From: a virus
Taxonomy: Duplodnaviria > Caudoviricetes
DNA: 33,981 bases
Virus record (IMG/VR): IMGVR_UViG_3300021085_000113
Span: 1-33,981 of that record
Strand: one strand, 5' to 3'
Under the pieces are notes generated by a model. The model was given only the letters and a program-made list of their open reading frames with translations, was not told the DNA's origin and searched no databases. Every line of letters begins with the position of its first letter. Within the stretch, counting starts at the first letter, position 1. The translations under genes and the position numbers were made by a program. Shown here in pieces: positions 3,922 through 19,694 of the stretch.

Positions 3922-5205
3922 TTAGTTAAGAGAGGGTTTAGTCCTCTCAATAAATTTCTGTATAGATGCCTTAAATTCGACCTCTATTGGCCCCAATCTT
4001 CCATTCCTTTGCTTGGCGAGCTCGATATAGGTGTTTTCATCTCCACCTTTACCCTCCTTTTTCCATAGCATGAGAACGATATCGGCATCTCTTCCCACTC
4101 GGTCTGAGTCTGCTAAGTCGGAAACCCGAGGGCAGGCATTTGTTTGATCTGCATTCCGGTTAACTTGTGACAACATTATGACTGGAATTTTTAATTCTTT
4201 TGCTAACGCTTTTAAACCCCATGTAATTCCGGCAACTTGCTGTTCTCTTGGTGCTTTTCTGTCTTCGGGGCGAACTATTTGGCAATAATCGACAATTACC
4301 ATATCCAAACCTGTTCTTGCCAATTTCCGTGCTTTCGCTCGAATTGTAGCAACTGACATATCTCCTGCATCTTCCATGTAGAGTGGAGCTTTCCGAAGAA
4401 AATCTTTTGCTTTCTCAACGGCATCAATTTGACCTTGGGTCATCACCTTATCCACCATGACCCGAACGGGTACTCCTGAGACATTTGCGAGCATTCTTTC
4501 CATCACTGACTCATTGACCATTTCGAGTGAAAAGAATTGTACCGTCTTTCCTGCCCGCAAAGCCCCCAATGCCATTTCAATTGAAAATGCGGTCTTACCC
4601 ACGGATGTCCGTGCCGCAAGGGTGATTAGGTCGTTTTTTTGCCAACCACATGTCATTTTGTCAAGTGAGCGAATACCGCTCGGTATTCCATTAATTCCGC
4701 CAACTTTCTGCCGTTCGAGAATACCTTCCCACGCTGAGTCAACAACTTCAGCACCCGTTTTTAGCTTGGATTTTTCCTTGAGGGAAAGCTTTGAAAATTC
4801 ACTCCCACCTTGCTCAACAACATCAACCGCACGGCTCCCTCTTTCGGACGCCATTTGGATAATTCCATGACATGCCTCAATTGCTTGCCTCTTGAGCCAC
4901 AAACCTTCTGTGTCTTCGAGAAATTTGCTGAAATGTGCCGTTGTTTCAACCCGATCGAATGCCTCAATAACCTCAGTCCTAACCTCTTCTGGCATGGAGA
5001 AGGCGATTGAAATATCATCCACCTCTCTACCTTTTTGGTCCTCGGAAAGCATTTGCTTTGCAATTTGCTGATGGAGCGGATCCATAAACCATTCTGGCGA
5101 GAATCCACGTTCGAGAGCGTCTGCCCAATTTTCTGTTCTTTTTCCAATGCACCCAAGCAACCCTGCTTCGATGTCCGTGTCGTAATTTTTAATTTCTAAA
5201 TTCAT
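3922..5205 (-). CDS. dnaB: Replicative DNA helicase, DnaB family
   Basis: Walker A AARTSVGKT, FSLEM, Walker B IVDYCQ, LKALAKEL.IPVIMLSQ, AKQRNG. Confidence 0.95.
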   Translation of the reverse strand: MNLEIKNYDTDIEAGLLGCIGKRTENWADALERGFSPEWFMDPLHQQIAKQMLSEDQKGREVDDISIAFSMPEEVRTEVIEAFDRVETTAHFSKFLEDTEGLWLKRQAIEACHGIIQMASERGSRAVDVVEQGGSEFSKLSLKEKSKLKTGAEVVDSAWEGILERQKVGGINGIPSGIRSLDKMTCGWQKNDLITLAARTSVGKTAFSIEMALGALRAGKTVQFFSLEMVNESVMERMLANVSGVPVRVMVDKVMTQGQIDAVEKAKDFLRKAPLYMEDAGDMSVATIRAKARKLARTGLDMVIVDYCQIVRPEDRKAPREQQVAGITWGLKALAKELKIPVIMLSQVNRNADQTNACPRVSDLADSDRVGRDADIVLMLWKKEGKGGDENTYIELAKQRNGRLGPIEVEFKASIQKFIERTKPSLN

Positions 5206-5899
5206 CTAAATAATATCCGTCTATTTCGTTAATTGTTTTTGCGTCTTTATGCTTTTCGAACCACTCGGGGTGCTTCTTCTCCATCCACTTGAGTACCGCT
5301 TCTAAGCTTTCTCCACCTTTGACTTCATCCTCTTTCTCAGGCCTCCACTCGGGGTTGTTTCCAATCCATTTGTTGAGGGCATAACCCCATTTTGCGAGAG
5401 GGGTTCGTCCTTGCTTCCAACCGTTTGCTTCGTAGTGGGCAAAGAATTGTTCAGCTTTTCGCTGAGGGTTGGGAATGCGTCGTTGCTTGAAATACTCCAA
5501 GCATTCGGCGAAATCCTTCGGCTTCCTGTTTTCCCCAATGTCCTGAGAGGAAACTTTTTTCTTTTTGACCCCTTTAGGGGGTTTTTCTTTTTGGGAAGGA
5601 GAGGGGGGAGTGGGGGGAGAGGGAACCCTTTTGCTTTTAGGTTCCAATGTGGCACCACTTTCCTTTTCAGAATTATCAGTGGAATTATGCTCAACCATAG
5701 TAGTAGTCTCGCTTTCCTCATGATTCTCACCCACTTTATCATTTTCAAATGTGGTGCCACATGTGGTGCCACCCAATTGAATGGCAAGTAAAACATTTGC
5801 CACACTATTTTTCGACTCACCCGAAAGGTGCGCCAAAGCCTCGATTCTAGTGATGATTTCGTCACTAGTTCGGAGGTTGAGTCTGTTTCGATTAGACAC
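5189..5899 (-). CDS. Replication initiator with RHH-like N-terminus
   Basis: Directly upstream of dnaB; low-complexity middle with PPTPP; C-terminal AEQFFAHYEANGWKQG..W..W motif of phage initiators; internal DNA repeats. Confidence 0.7.
   Translation of the reverse strand: MSNRNRLNLRTSDEIITRIEALAHLSGESKNSVANVLLAIQLGGTTCGTTFENDKVGENHEESETTTMVEHNSTDNSEKESGATLEPKSKRVPSPPTPPSPSQKEKPPKGVKKKKVSSQDIGENRKPKDFAECLEYFKQRRIPNPQRKAEQFFAHYEANGWKQGRTPLAKWGYALNKWIGNNPEWRPEKEDEVKGGESLEAVLKWMEKKHPEWFEKHKDAKTINEIDGYYLDEFRN
5645..5772. repeat. Putative origin iterons GTGG-NN-CCAC
   Basis: ATGTGGTGCCAC tandem at 5749-5760 and 5761-5772; inverted GTGGCACCAC at 5649-5658. Confidence 0.55.
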
Positions 5900-6230
5900 A
5901 TTTTACCTCCACTTCCGTGACTTCGTTCGAGTACCCTTTGATTTTCTCTTGCGAGACTTCGAGGGTGATGGACGCTGGGTCATCATCAGGGATAATGCCT
6001 GTGAGCCTGAGCGAATCGATGAGATGCTTACACCCCCCATAGAGGTTGTCGACGTCGAGGAGCCTGACTCTAAAGCTTTTAATTCGGACATGATGGCGAG
6101 GGCGACCACTAGGTTCATCTCCTTTTTCTCCTTTAGCCTTTCCCATGGACCCCACCTCAGGAGTTGATTTAGACTTGGAATCCGTTTTGCTATCTTGAAG
6201 TTTATTATTTCTCCCTTTTCCATCGCTCAT
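5892..6230 (-). CDS. RusA-like Holliday junction resolvase (frame with the catalytic part)
   Basis: VRI.S.R.RLLDVDNL.GG.K.LIDSL...GII.DDD motif; start coupled to the upstream stop. Confidence 0.75.
   Translation of the reverse strand: MSDGKGRNNKLQDSKTDSKSKSTPEVGSMGKAKGEKGDEPSGRPRHHVRIKSFRVRLLDVDNLYGGCKHLIDSLRLTGIIPDDDPASITLEVSQEKIKGYSNEVTEVEVKCV
5903..6223 (-). CDS. Overlapping ORF carrying a RusA-like N-terminal strand, PSLN and helix
   Basis: IINFKIAKRIPSLNQLLRWGPWERLKEKK resembles the start of RusA-like proteins, which the other frame lacks. Confidence 0.5.
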   Translation of the reverse strand: MEKGEIINFKIAKRIPSLNQLLRWGPWERLKEKKEMNLVVALAIMSELKALESGSSTSTTSMGGVSISSIRSGSQALSLMMTQRPSPSKSRKRKSKGTRTKSRKWR

Positions 6231-7348
6231 TTCGCTCTTACTAGCGCCTCCGCTTTCGGCTTTTCGGTGATTATCCCTTCAAGGATTTGTTCCAATTCTT
6301 CTACTGCATCTTTTCTTTTCAATGTGGCACCACTTTCATTTCTCTTTTCCATCCAAACCTTAACGAGCTTAGAAATAGAAATGCTAGTAGTCGTCAGTAG
6401 GTCCTCCCATTTAAGTAGGTTGGTGTCCATGATTCTCTCAGCGCAAAGGTTGGCGTCACTTATTGACTTCACTTTTCCACTCGAGCGAAGTTTCCAACCT
6501 TCCACTTCTTCACCATTACCAAGCTCTTCCTTAGCCCTAGACTTAACTGCACTTGCCCATTTTTCTGCAAGAACGGCAATTTCTAATGCCCACCCTAAGT
6601 GAGTATCATCTGGATGAAATCGATAGTCAGCACCCAAATGTGCCTCTTCTTGAATTGTGCCGGCAACATCTGCGCAATGAGCTAAACCATTGCAGAACTT
6701 GCACTGCTTCAAGCCGACAACTTTTTCCGCAGTTTCCTTATTAGCCTCAGAAACAATAGTTGTTACTAGACTTTCTAATTGTTCCAACCTTTCAGTAGAA
6801 TACTCAACTAAGCTAAAAGAAGGGGAGGGAAACGGCTCCACCAATGAGCAGTACATTTTCTTCATCCCTTCACTATTTCTATAAACTGCCAAAGCTTGCG
6901 CGAGTAACTGAATATTATCAGGGGCAGGGGTATGGTCACCATAAAGAGTTTTCCAGTCCACTAGAAGGTATATGCCACCCTCATACTCCCGCAAAAGGTC
7001 GTACTTAGCGGAATAAACCTTATCTTCATTTTGATTCAACCAAAGTCTTTTTTCCAACCATTGGTTGGAATGATTTGAAACTCCTGCTTCAAGTTCAACT
7101 TTTTCAAGTAACATTAATGCCCTTTTAGTACATTCATGTTGTTGGTCGTCCTCAATAGAATCCAAGGTTATGTCACCTCTTATGACCTGTTCAATTAGGT
7201 CATGTCTGATAGTACCTTCATTCGCATCACTTCCGCCACTAGAGGGGAACATCTTTTGATAGTTCCAACTACCTGGGCATAGCTTCATTTGCTCTATGCC
7301 ACTTGCAGATGGTAGCCCTTCTCGTTCGTCCTTAGGCTCCGAATCCAT
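6227..7348 (-). CDS. PD-(D/E)xK exonuclease, Cas4/DUF2800-like
   Basis: SAS...CPGS, EGT..H, YDLL...VDWKT, QL motif, CKFC.....C cluster. Confidence 0.8.
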   Translation of the reverse strand: MDSEPKDEREGLPSASGIEQMKLCPGSWNYQKMFPSSGGSDANEGTIRHDLIEQVIRGDITLDSIEDDQQHECTKRALMLLEKVELEAGVSNHSNQWLEKRLWLNQNEDKVYSAKYDLLREYEGGIYLLVDWKTLYGDHTPAPDNIQLLAQALAVYRNSEGMKKMYCSLVEPFPSPSFSLVEYSTERLEQLESLVTTIVSEANKETAEKVVGLKQCKFCNGLAHCADVAGTIQEEAHLGADYRFHPDDTHLGWALEIAVLAEKWASAVKSRAKEELGNGEEVEGWKLRSSGKVKSISDANLCAERIMDTNLLKWEDLLTTTSISISKLVKVWMEKRNESGATLKRKDAVEELEQILEGIITEKPKAEALVRAK

Positions 7349-7970
7349 CCTTTGACCCTCCTTTTTTCATACTCTTATCTAATGCCTTGCGAAGAATTTT
7401 ATCTTCTTCCGAGGGGTCATTAGAAGTCCATTTACTTTGGTACCATTCTAATTGGTTTGGCTTGAGGTCACCCAAAGGGACGCCTGAATTTCTACCGAAA
7501 TGAATTTGAATTTCCTCCCATGAATCCACCACTACTGTTTCTACTGTTTCTACGGAAACAGGGGAGGGAGCAGTTACTTTTTCTGCCCCACCAGATTTTT
7601 TAACCTTAGTCCCCCCTCCCTGTTTCGTAAAAGCTTCAGTCGGTTCTTTATAAAGGTCTCTTCCAATGCCCCAATGAACACACGCTCTTTTAAAAGCATC
7701 GCTGAAATGTCCTTTCTCAGCTTCGAAATTCGACTCGGTACCAACATCCCACTTAGTTACCCATTCACCATCACTCTTTACGGAAACTCCGCAAATAAGG
7801 TGTCCGCCAATTTCTTTATATTCATTCTTCCAATTCTGTGGACCTACGCTTTGGTCGAGTCTGTCCATACAGAATCTCGCAGTAACATAGTCCATTTTAT
7901 TTCCACCTTTACCGGGTTTTTGTCCAATTCTTTTAGGCGGAGTTGGTTCGCCAATTTTTTTTATATCCAT
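7332..7970 (-). CDS. Sak/Rad52-family ssDNA annealing protein
   Basis: YVTAR.CMDRLD..VGPQNW, KWDVG, EKG.FSDAFKRACVHWGIGRDLY. Confidence 0.85.
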   Translation of the reverse strand: MDIKKIGEPTPPKRIGQKPGKGGNKMDYVTARFCMDRLDQSVGPQNWKNEYKEIGGHLICGVSVKSDGEWVTKWDVGTESNFEAEKGHFSDAFKRACVHWGIGRDLYKEPTEAFTKQGGGTKVKKSGGAEKVTAPSPVSVETVETVVVDSWEEIQIHFGRNSGVPLGDLKPNQLEWYQSKWTSNDPSEEDKILRKALDKSMKKGGSKDGFGA

Positions 7971-9311: not shown

Positions 9312-10322
9312 ATGAAAAAGTATAAGCGAACGGTTAGGGGTGAAACTAAATATGTGATTGATGTTATGCATCATGGAAAGCGTAGGCGAAAAAGTTTTTC
9401 CGACTTTGGTGAGTCTCAAAGATTTGAGAAAGATGGTGGGCTGAATGAATGGTTGTCCAGTTTTGAAGAACAACCCGATGGGCATAATACTACGGTTTCG
9501 GTTGGAATAAAGAAATACTTAGAAAATTACCAAAGCAGATATCCAGATGCGAGGTGGAGTCATATAGAGTCGAGGCTAAGTTATTTATTAAAGTGGGGAC
9601 TTGGTGGTGAGAAAATTGACTCACTTGACGTTCAATACATTCAACGGCGGGTAGAGGAGCAAACTTCATGGAAAACAGCTTCAAGTAAGTACACCTATAA
9701 GAATCAATTTGTAATATTTTTAAATTGGTGCGGCTTAATGGGGTACTGCAAGAAAACCAAATGGGAAATTAAAACACTCAGAATGCCCCCGAAAGAAAGA
9801 GAGATTGGAATTTTAACTCCCAAACAAGCTGAACTGTTACTCAACGAAGATGGAGGCGAGCGAAATAATTCCCGTTCGTGGGAGAAATATAAACCATCCC
9901 TTGCTATTATGTTATTTGCCGGACTGCGACCGCAGGGTGAAATGGAAAAGCTTGATTACTCTCATATAAAGCATGGTGAGTCTATTAGCGTTCCCGCTTC
10001 AAAGACACCCTCTCGATTTATTACGGAATTGCCTGATAATTTGTGGTCATGGATACCCGATAAGAAAAGTGGCCCCGTGATGCCATCATGGAAGGGAATG
10101 AACCAAAGTCGGTCAAGAGCAGTTAAGAGACTAGGATTTAAATATCCAGGTGATGGAGCGAGGCATAGTTTCGGCTCGTATGGATACTGGATGTATGGAC
10201 TAGAGTGGACGATGCACACGATGGGTCACATGAACTACAATACCTTTAAAACTTACTACATGAATAAAAAAGTATCTAAAGCTGAAGCAAAAAAGTATTT
10301 TAGTATAGATACGGATTCGTAA
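9312..10322 (+). CDS. int: Tyrosine integrase
   Basis: FAGLRPQGE (R), SKT (K), DGARHSF (R), MGH, KTYY (Y); N-terminal arm-binding-like region. Confidence 0.92.
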   Translation: MKKYKRTVRGETKYVIDVMHHGKRRRKSFSDFGESQRFEKDGGLNEWLSSFEEQPDGHNTTVSVGIKKYLENYQSRYPDARWSHIESRLSYLLKWGLGGEKIDSLDVQYIQRRVEEQTSWKTASSKYTYKNQFVIFLNWCGLMGYCKKTKWEIKTLRMPPKEREIGILTPKQAELLLNEDGGERNNSRSWEKYKPSLAIMLFAGLRPQGEMEKLDYSHIKHGESISVPASKTPSRFITELPDNLWSWIPDKKSGPVMPSWKGMNQSRSRAVKRLGFKYPGDGARHSFGSYGYWMYGLEWTMHTMGHMNYNTFKTYYMNKKVSKAEAKKYFSIDTDS

Positions 10323-17918: not shown

Positions 17919-19694
17919 ATGGCAAATCCATTCGATAACTCGCAACTGAGTACGCCCGCTACATCTTCTAACGGAAGTCTAGTAAAGGCACCTGGCGCAT
18001 TGAATGCTAGTGGAGATTTTCTTCCTCGCATCGTAAGTGTAGACTCCAGTACCGGTTGTACACTTACTAACGCCAGCATCAAGGGTATGACTCCTGCTGA
18101 GTTTGAAGGTCTCTCCAATAAGGAAATTGACCTCGCTCGCGTGATTGCATCTGCCGCTGAAGCTAAAATGCTTGGAGTTCAAGAAAAAGGATTCTCCTCT
18201 TTAATTAGATCGAGTATCACGAACATCAAACCATTACTTAATCAGCAAAAGATTGAAACACAGTCTTTGATTCTTCCTTACATCCAAAGAAGACAAAGAA
18301 CCCAAATCAATAGTAATTACTTTGCCGGTTCTGGTGGAGAAGCTGCTTCTGGTGCAGGAACAAACGGATTACACGCAGGGGCATGGTCATGCACTGTTGA
18401 CCTTGGTGATTCTCCATGGAAGTCAAATCTTTCATTAATTGACAGATACTTCCTACCTGGTGCTACTGTTATTGTAAGCTCATGGGGGGAAGACAAGAAA
18501 GCTAAAGACTTAGTTTACAAAATTGTTTCCGCAGTTGATGCTACTCCTTCTGGTGGTGAAGCAAAGGCAACTCTCGTTCTTGAGCCAAATATAACTTCTA
18601 CTGCATATGCCGCATTAAGTGAAGGTGCAAAAGCAGCTTATCAATTCGGAGTCGGTGTAGTTCAGACTGGAGCAAATTCGGTTAATGATTACGAAGAGTG
18701 GTGCCACAATCAACCTTCTGATTTAAGTAATCACTTGATTGTAAATTGGCTTCAAACAACTCGCGAATCTCGCATTGTTGATGACCAGTACAAAGCTACT
18801 CTTGAGTCAATTATGACTGGTAAAACAAATCCGTTCTTACAGAACTTTGTTTACCAACCTCTCGCCGAGCAGAACAAGCGCGCAAGTCAACTTTCTGACG
18901 AAGCATGGATGCGTTCAGTATGGTACGGTCAAAAGATTGATGAGAATCAAACTCCTGAGACTTACATGAATCTCCCTGCTGTTGTTGACCCCGAGGGTGC
19001 TCGCACAGGCAGTTCTGATTGTGTTCTTGAGTATAAATCAAATGCTCTTGGCCTTCACACTCAACTTCGTGACGCAAATCGTGTAGTTGATAATCAAGGT
19101 GCAAAACTTGACTTGGATTACTTATTCCAACAGTTGTACTACTTAAAGCGTAATCGTGAGGCAGATGGAGATAGCATTCAAGTTATTGATGTCATGACTG
19201 ACCGTGTTACTGCGAACAACATCTTCACTGTAATGAATAATTACTACAAAGCGAAGTATGGTTGGGATACAGTTCGTAATGCAGATATCAATCAAAAGAT
19301 TGAGCATAACGGAATCATGTTGTTTAACTACAACAAGTACGACATTCCTGAGATTGGTATCCAACTTGCGGTATTTCATGACCAGTACTTTGATGATTTA
19401 ATTTCAGCAACTCCAAAAGACACATCCATAACTGGATATGACTCCAAGTCACGCTCGCGTGCATTGTGGTTATTAGATTGGTCTGACATTAAAGTTGGAA
19501 TTGCAGGAACTAATTCTGTTACTCGTAAGAATCCGGCTCCTGAAGTCATGGATGCTTATAAGTGCCGCATGAGTGCCGTAATTAAGGAATACTCACTTCG
19601 CTCTACTACTTGGACAACTATGATGGATCGACCTGAGCGTCACCTCATTATCCAAAACTTTAGTGGAGAAGCACCATCGGTCACAACTGAGTAG
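17919..19694 (+). CDS. Major capsid protein (putative, 591 aa)
   Basis: Position after scaffold; own upstream regulatory region and downstream terminator; NWLQTTRES and WYGQK patterns compatible with an HK97 fold. Confidence 0.7.
   Translation: MANPFDNSQLSTPATSSNGSLVKAPGALNASGDFLPRIVSVDSSTGCTLTNASIKGMTPAEFEGLSNKEIDLARVIASAAEAKMLGVQEKGFSSLIRSSITNIKPLLNQQKIETQSLILPYIQRRQRTQINSNYFAGSGGEAASGAGTNGLHAGAWSCTVDLGDSPWKSNLSLIDRYFLPGATVIVSSWGEDKKAKDLVYKIVSAVDATPSGGEAKATLVLEPNITSTAYAALSEGAKAAYQFGVGVVQTGANSVNDYEEWCHNQPSDLSNHLIVNWLQTTRESRIVDDQYKATLESIMTGKTNPFLQNFVYQPLAEQNKRASQLSDEAWMRSVWYGQKIDENQTPETYMNLPAVVDPEGARTGSSDCVLEYKSNALGLHTQLRDANRVVDNQGAKLDLDYLFQQLYYLKRNREADGDSIQVIDVMTDRVTANNIFTVMNNYYKAKYGWDTVRNADINQKIEHNGIMLFNYNKYDIPEIGIQLAVFHDQYFDDLISATPKDTSITGYDSKSRSRALWLLDWSDIKVGIAGTNSVTRKNPAPEVMDAYKCRMSAVIKEYSLRSTTWTTMMDRPERHLIIQNFSGEAPSVTTE

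Follow-up and report, generated by a model that had tools for sequence, protein, structure and literature searches.

The overlapping genes and their genomic setting

The window, meaning the whole stretch of 33,981 nucleotides analysed here (IMG/VR record IMGVR_UViG_3300021085_000113), is a tailed-phage genome with terminase, integrase, portal and tail matches, and it turns up in marine runs. An operon on the minus strand encodes, in this order, a Rad52/Erf annealing protein, a DUF2800 exonuclease, two overlapping frames named A and B here, a probable initiator, a DnaB helicase and an SSB (Table 1). The locus of frames A and B, about 330 nt long, is a real, conserved two-frame layout. Both frames are read from the minus strand; 7 nt separate their starts and 11 nt their ends, in agreement with the coordinates in an earlier note on this DNA. 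In frame A a strand, PSLN and a basic helix are followed by a basic tail rich in S/T. Frame B begins with a leader that has a pLDDT below 50 over residues 1-41, and the catalytic motifs D59-x-D61-N62...K68...D82-D84 lie behind it; this division of parts, also described in the earlier note, is borne out. Frame A was missed by gene finders and its exact sequence is absent from a collection of 15 billion called proteins, in which frame B, unlike frame A, is present.

Table 1. Features of the two-frame locus and its neighbours in the window
Feature	Position	Strand	Remarks
Frame A gene, 106 aa (P0002)	5903..6223	-	N-terminal RusA-like half-fold and basic tail
Frame B gene, 112 aa (P0001)	5892..6230	-	Disordered leader and catalytic half (strand, helix, two strands)
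PSLN motif, frame A residues 16-19	6167..6178	-	Invariant in 41/41 alignment rows
Predicted helix alpha-1, frame A residues 27-50	6074..6145	-	Matches helix 23-44 of the one-chain model
Double-duty stretch	6069..6100	-	Frame-A helix end LAIMSEL and frame-B first strand HHVRIKSFR on the same bases
Frame-B Ile50 codon ATT	6083-6081	-	Inside the double-duty stretch
Predicted catalytic residues of frame B (D59, D61, N62, K68, D82-D84)	5979..6056	-	
Frame A tail, residues 55-106	5906..6061	-	13 K+R, 0 D+E
G_AAA_AAG, proposed slip site	6122..6128	-	In frame-A phase; judged incidental
Candidate second frame-B start	6144..6158	-	GAGGT at 6158-6154, ATG at 6146; product 84 aa
DUF2800 exonuclease, upstream	6227..7348	-	PF10926 E 3e-21, phrog_69
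Rad52/Erf-like single-strand annealing protein	7332..7970	-	PF04098 E 5e-12, phrog_1097
Downstream gene, probably a replication initiator	5189..5899	-	Inferred from position before DnaB
DnaB-like helicase	3922..5205	-	PF03796 E 3e-69
GTGGYRCCAC copies	5649-5658, 5751-5760, 5763-5772, 6324-6333, 18698-18707		

The frame B ATG overlaps the exonuclease stop (ATGA) in the window, and in two relatives (L002 and L004) this stop overlaps the ATG of frame A instead. The GTG of the downstream gene lies 3 nt past the frame A stop. Both starts in the window are without a clear Shine-Dalgarno sequence (-2.1 and -2.2 kcal/mol), as are those of many window genes. A promoter scan stayed at chance level, with 10 found and 12.4 expected.

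An integrase gene (9312-10322, plus strand; phrog_1, E 2e-21) lies between the replication and packaging arms, and from this match the phage is probably temperate. The near-palindrome GTGGYRCCAC has five copies in the window against 0.06 expected, four of which flank the locus. It also occurs at matching places in 10 of the 39 clusters of relatives described below, all of them with the window-type downstream gene. These copies are candidate operator or origin sites, and the N-terminal segment of the probable initiator, which we take to resemble a ribbon-helix-helix DNA-binding domain, could be their binder. A Verrucomicrobiia MAG (L271, JBAXTX010000019.1) holds the sole distant-type two-frame copy among four matches in 185,579 genomes, at most a hint that Verrucomicrobiia are the host group. 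L272, a window-clade copy labelled as an uncultured archaeon bin, may be a mis-binned phage contig. Among cultured-phage records frame A has no match and frame B one weak match (MW202801.1, E 6e-3), so no isolated phage with the two-frame layout was found.

Conservation of both frames and of their starts

Scans of viral and metagenome contigs give at least 125 distinct loci with the catalytic motif, one scan contributing the best 80 of 144 loci. Among the matches listed, both frames are open and PSLN stands in the +1 frame in 102 of the 125 loci, and another 20 are one-chain. The remaining three are a locus cut by a contig end (L076), a two-frame locus with a short frame A (L083) and a locus with a 2-nt insertion (L170). 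Clustering at 90% nucleotide identity reduces the 101 loci that share the window's register to 39 clusters, one of which holds the window itself, with a median pairwise nucleotide identity of 0.66 and a minimum of 0.49; these clusters share ancestry, so counts over them are not independent events. Left out of the counts are 23 of the 125 loci, as well as L084 (ungapped set) and L272 (distant set). In relatives, positions are counted in nt from the codon of the first catalytic Asp (6056 in the window).

More distant relatives have the same arrangement. In the scan with more distant seeds, 79 of the best 80 of 348 loci have PS[LIV]N in frame A and the other has TSLN, and a reverse scan with frame A gives 57 loci, all carrying an open frame B with DxDN. 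A protein search with frame A finds no homologues, and a profile of frame B collects 865 clusters (50% identity) at E <= 1e-10. Of the best 150 of these 865, 144 can be evaluated, six having the motif missing or too near the N-terminus. A trace of PSLN in the other frame's leader is present in 135 of the 144, where shuffles would give 18.4; 107 of these traces stand exactly 37 residues before the Asp. PSLN is in the same chain as the catalytic part in only two of the 144. These trace counts are indirect, being read from protein sequences.

Stop codons are avoided in both frames. With the synonymous codons of the conserved frame randomised over the 39 clusters, 104.7 frame B stops are expected over frame A codons 1-42 and 70.9 over codons 1-26, and none is observed in either; over the catalytic part, frame A has no stops against 182.5 expected. 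Stops are present in the third frame of all 39 clusters and in the +1 frame of 18 of the 19 one-chain controls. Codons for Leu, Ile or Val with a TA ending before a purine, which would give a stop in frame A, number 0 of 460 here versus 205 of 580 in other genes. Amino-acid conservation follows frame A in the front of the locus and frame B behind.

Both frames also keep start codons. The frame A start is at -167 in all 39 clusters, and each cluster has a frame B start between -186 and -141, which is ATG in 37. The frame B ATG takes six different positions from -183 to -141, behind differing upstream genes, and the third frame has an ATG in none of the 39 clusters. Among 24 distant clusters an ATG is present for frame A in 23 and for frame B in 22. 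Thus both frames are under selection and each has its own start, as in nested genes, and from this selection on the sequence both frames appear to be translated.

The codon at 6146-6144 is ATG, GTG or TTG in 39 of 39 clusters and never CTG, and its TG is conserved because the Trp of frame A read there is invariant. GAGGT in front of it is strongly Shine-Dalgarno-like in the window, which is not general in the family (median -4.1 kcal/mol versus -2.5 for internal controls). This codon was considered as the main start of frame B and dropped, since frame B is open upstream of it over frame A codons 1-26. It may be a second start that gives a shorter chain.

The tail of frame A has a more varied history. 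Its stop is bimodal in the 24 distant clusters, lying 2-32 nt before the Asp in six and at +136 or later in 18, with none between, which suggests that the tail is dispensable in some lineages and held open in others, the window's included. In the six (L175, L185, L187, L189, L190 and L271) frame A ends just past the helix and lies wholly inside frame B, and these loci are the minimal nested half-gene. Fourfold sites of frame B differ at 0.21 over the frame A tail versus 0.37 in the front half (pairs 80-90% identical); the comparison with flanking genes is suggestive, its pairs being non-independent and binned on the locus itself and the flanks possibly mosaic. A function of the tail in DNA binding or in translational coupling to the next gene is possible.

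A tree built on the catalytic region, with 61 rows and 65 columns, includes 20 of the 39 clusters from the window's clade, 24 distant clusters and 17 one-chain proteins, and is poorly resolved. It needs four changes, and on it one common origin is neither established nor refuted (p-AU 0.087). The layout would be obtainable by a frame-shifting deletion near the junction of helix and strand, followed by in-frame shortening.

Two proposed half-folds and the readings of their shared bases

Frame B matches the RusA-like PHROG phrog_34 (E 1.7e-4, residues 48-105). In Pfam neither frame has a match, in the PHROGs frame A has none, and 1 of 16 family members matches PF05866 (E 0.013). One-chain relatives provide the link to RusA. 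Of these, 15 of 18 match phrog_34, and the model of one (pLDDT 93.5) is matched by Foldseek to E. coli RusA with E 1.4e-4 and a TM score of 0.68-0.71. Frame B aligns to their back part with an hhalign E of 9e-23, and frame A residues 5-41 align to their residues 2-40 with an E of 5e-4 and a probability of 30%, weak on its own. The frame B model over residues 43-112 superimposes on residues 52-117 of RusA 1q8r (Z 4.4, rmsd 2.9, 64 aligned), a score tied with unrelated folds. Chain B alone gives no Foldseek match at E <= 0.001, and a PDB profile search with it is likewise empty, while its pLDDT is 73-90 over residues 41-112.

RusA's own motif is PPSNN near residue 11. According to two papers (PMC1636454; PMC10956419), the RusA monomer is a four-stranded mixed sheet with two helices, its catalytic residues are D70, D72, D91, N73 and K76, and its residues 13-16 and 65-69 contact DNA. 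By these accounts the set D59, D61, N62, K68 and D82-D84 of frame B corresponds to D70, D72, N73, K76 and D90/D91 of RusA, with an Asn-to-Lys spacing of 6 in frame B versus 3 in RusA. D59, D61, N62, K68, D83 and D84 are invariant in 41 of 41 rows, and all catalytic residues and an Arg-rich stretch are in chain B. From the same accounts we infer that PSLN of frame A is the counterpart of the DNA-contacting helical turn 13-16, and chain A would hold the strand, turn and helix that are missing from chain B.

The earlier note had called for a heterodimer prediction. For A(1-56) with B(42-112) the predicted complex scores 0.52 versus 0.00 for three controls, so the pairing stands out from the controls at a level that is only weak. 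The runs agree in at least 96% of contacts, the partners have a pLDDT of at least 73, and no interface was given. The mark is reached by 116 of 157 solved pairs and 2 of 215 mismatched ones; at 0.60 or below there are only 18 solved pairs and both mismatches. The score may come from the likeness of the split halves to solved RusA.

The end of the frame-A helix and the first strand of frame B use the same nucleotides, which the earlier note had pointed out and which proves to be the strongest clue at the locus. The Ile codon in that strand is ATT in 39 of 39 clusters, giving Leu in frame A in 38. Among the distant clusters it is ATT in 15 of the 16 whose helix overlaps the strand and in 3 of the 7 with an earlier helix end; as background, 38 of 64 Ile codons (59%) in four flanking genes are ATT. 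This invariance suggests that both readings of the shared bases are under selection, and since one chain cannot read the shared bases twice, it counts against a single-chain product. The Asp follows PSLN at a distance of 41 residues in the clade of the window and of 37 or 44-45 among the distant groups (37-45 overall), versus 53-56 in 17 of 19 one-chain relatives (50-66 overall). A fusion of frames A and B, its fold assessed from spacing alone, would be 12-15 residues shorter than the one-chain relatives and without the conserved helix end.

The layout might reflect an assembly error or a decaying frameshifted gene, and single-contig indels are known in the family. In L170 an AG run around 1980 contains two additional bases that join one frame to the other, and P0046 has a frame switch within one protein on a single contig; together with P0179 (below) these are probably errors or rare mutants. 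At the window's locus, however, other runs are without an indel. Contigs from run X2 tile 5600-6600 and one X3 contig covers 5679-6600, both ungapped against the window, and an RNA-library contig (X9) spans 6017-6167, including the proposed slip site, also ungapped. Four runs were compared, of which X4 covers little and X2 and X3 are 2018 marine runs, possibly from one campaign. For the window alone with synonymous codons randomised, the probability is 0.033 that frame B is open over frame A codons 1-42 and 0.0012 that frame A is open over the catalytic part, so the openness exceeds what chance would give. The layout recurs in 102 of 125 distinct loci among the matches listed in the first scans and in 79 of the best 80 of 348 in the distant scan, and amino-acid conservation changes frame along the locus. 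The other runs, the conserved layout and the stop counts already refute an assembly error or decay, and the earlier note was right to find a sequencing indel a poor explanation: there is no single-base error, and relatives keep frame A open with PSLN.

Recoding would join the halves into one product. The earlier note had proposed a programmed -1 frameshift at G_AAA_AAG, which does lie in the correct phase in the window, and AAA_AAG is a known slippery motif in bacteria. Such a frameshift, or a transcriptional slip, would join the front of A to the catalytic part of B in an active fusion, and a fusion of this kind is found in the database as P0179, which has the A front and the B back in frame. 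P0179 is a singleton on one contig, though, as expected of an indel. Of the two things whose conservation the earlier note had asked about, the two-frame layout holds in 39 of 39 clusters and the slip site does not, N_AAA_AAG standing at the proposed position in six. None of the tested slippery motifs occurs upstream of the strand in 27 of the 39 clusters; one is present in 3 of 24 distant clusters and in none of the eight of the -131/-134 group. It is in this last group that the helix ends almost before the strand starts and a fusion would lose little, whereas in the window's clade the fusion would be too short. As for a 3' stimulatory structure, the 81 nt past the site are less stable than 199 of 200 shuffles (z +1.82; window only, without pseudoknots). 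Frame B is moreover open, with a start, upstream of any slip point, and the shared bases are under selection for the helix end as well as for the strand. A frameshift or slip is therefore very unlikely. If the ribosome hopped backward, or the polymerase realigned, by about 40-55 nt, the shared stretch would be read twice; this would restore the one-chain spacing and account for the double selection, but it leaves unexplained why frame B has a start and an open leader in all 39 clusters. Four further RNA runs give the locus only thin coverage, too little to bear on expression or slippage. RNA-library contigs are without joints or insertions (only X9 bridges the stretch), and we know of no precedent for such an event, which we regard as highly improbable. 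Even taken together, the recoding readings are improbable.

The main rival, which we consider unlikely, is that the two chains are made separately but B needs no A for its activity, working as a homo-oligomer or beside a different partner, and that A is a regulator, inhibitor or DNA-binder derived from the front half of RusA. All catalytic residues and the Arg-rich stretch are in B, which is modelled with a pLDDT of 73-90 over residues 41-112, the complex score is weak, and the basic tail of A is open and partly constrained in the window's clade by the fourfold-site comparison (0.21 versus 0.37). Against this, B is without strand 1 and helix 1 of the four-stranded, two-helix fold described for RusA, A and B occur together in 57 of 57 loci of the reverse scan and in 79 of the best 80 of 348, and A retains exactly the missing elements, with nothing else in 6 of 24 distant clusters.

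The two-chain explanation, in which each chain comes from its own start, is half of a RusA-like fold and assembles with the other into a Holliday-junction resolvase, we hold to be quite probable on the sequence comparisons and models. The earlier note had named two co-expressed chains that complement each other as its other possibility, and it is this one that gains support from the open frames, the separate starts and the double selection on the shared bases. Each frame would be translated from a start codon of its own, in part through coupling to the stop upstream. Chain A would supply strand 1, the DNA-contacting PSLN turn and helix 1, and chain B the other three strands, helix 2 and all catalytic residues. 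A 1:1 pair of A and B would then make up a RusA protomer, and a complex of two pairs, A2B2, would correspond to RusA's homodimer. This enzyme may resolve junctions produced by the neighbouring exonuclease and annealing pair during phage recombination and replication. The leader of chain B would be a disordered by-product of reading the front of A, open only to reach its start. The basic tail of chain A, optional in the family, may contribute to DNA binding or link translation with that of the following gene; assembly alone gives no explanation for its openness.

Comparison with known systems

In the literature searched, mainly open-access and at abstract level, there is no description of RusA or any single enzyme domain split over overlapping frames. 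On balance we favour the view that one domain has been split and the two genes slid together until neighbouring fold elements share bases, that a phage resolvase family with hundreds of clusters at 50% identity normally has this arrangement, and that the second chain has been missed by gene callers. If so, overlapping genes can originate when one gene is split and its parts telescope, a route other than the overprinting of an unrelated protein, and a natural, conserved enzyme fold would be made from two chains encoded atop each other. The locus would be a small testable model for the origin of overlapping genes and for the sharing of constraint between two frames. It also marks an annotation blind spot, in which the catalytic chain is filed as a truncated "hypothetical protein" and its partner is absent. 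The trace method, which looks for the image of a conserved motif in the other frame, may be usable for finding other hidden half-genes.

Programmed -1 frameshift genes, such as dnaX, those of IS3-family transposases and those of phage tail-assembly chaperones, have one ORF in 0 phase and another in -1 phase; the overlap is short, the slip site is conserved, and the second ORF needs no start. The locus resembles them in having two overlapping ORFs in 0 and -1 phase, but its slip site is unconserved, its overlap is near total and both ORFs have starts. Lambda Rz/Rz1 and 11 viral pairs are two frames of one DNA that encode interacting proteins, and in the papers describing them (PMC3494269, PMC6195259) they are treated as a gene and an unrelated overprinted newcomer. 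Here, by contrast, both products would be fragments of one ancestral enzyme domain.

The closest sequence relatives are the one-chain DNLYGGCK-type phage RusA-like proteins (L005, L007 and L086), which, unlike the present pair, have the motif and the catalytic Asp in one frame. The locus shares with E. coli RusA (prophage DLP12; 1Q8R, 2H8C, 2H8E; PF05866; PHROGs 34, 1682 and 4632) the D-x-D-N...K...D set, the basic stretch before the first Asp, a fold predicted by way of the one-chain relatives and of the alignment of chain B to residues 52-117, and the setting in a phage recombination-replication operon. RusA acts as a dimer that makes symmetric nicks in Holliday junctions with Mg2+. RusA itself is one 14-kDa chain that forms a homodimer, according to PMC10956419. 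Here the protomer would be cut between helix 1 and strand 2, with the halves in different frames and each half carrying an extension read from the other's codons. The pair is RusA-like by every testable sign but lacks the one-chain feature, and is thus a split variant and not a canonical member; judged from sequence and models, this variant likely works like RusA.
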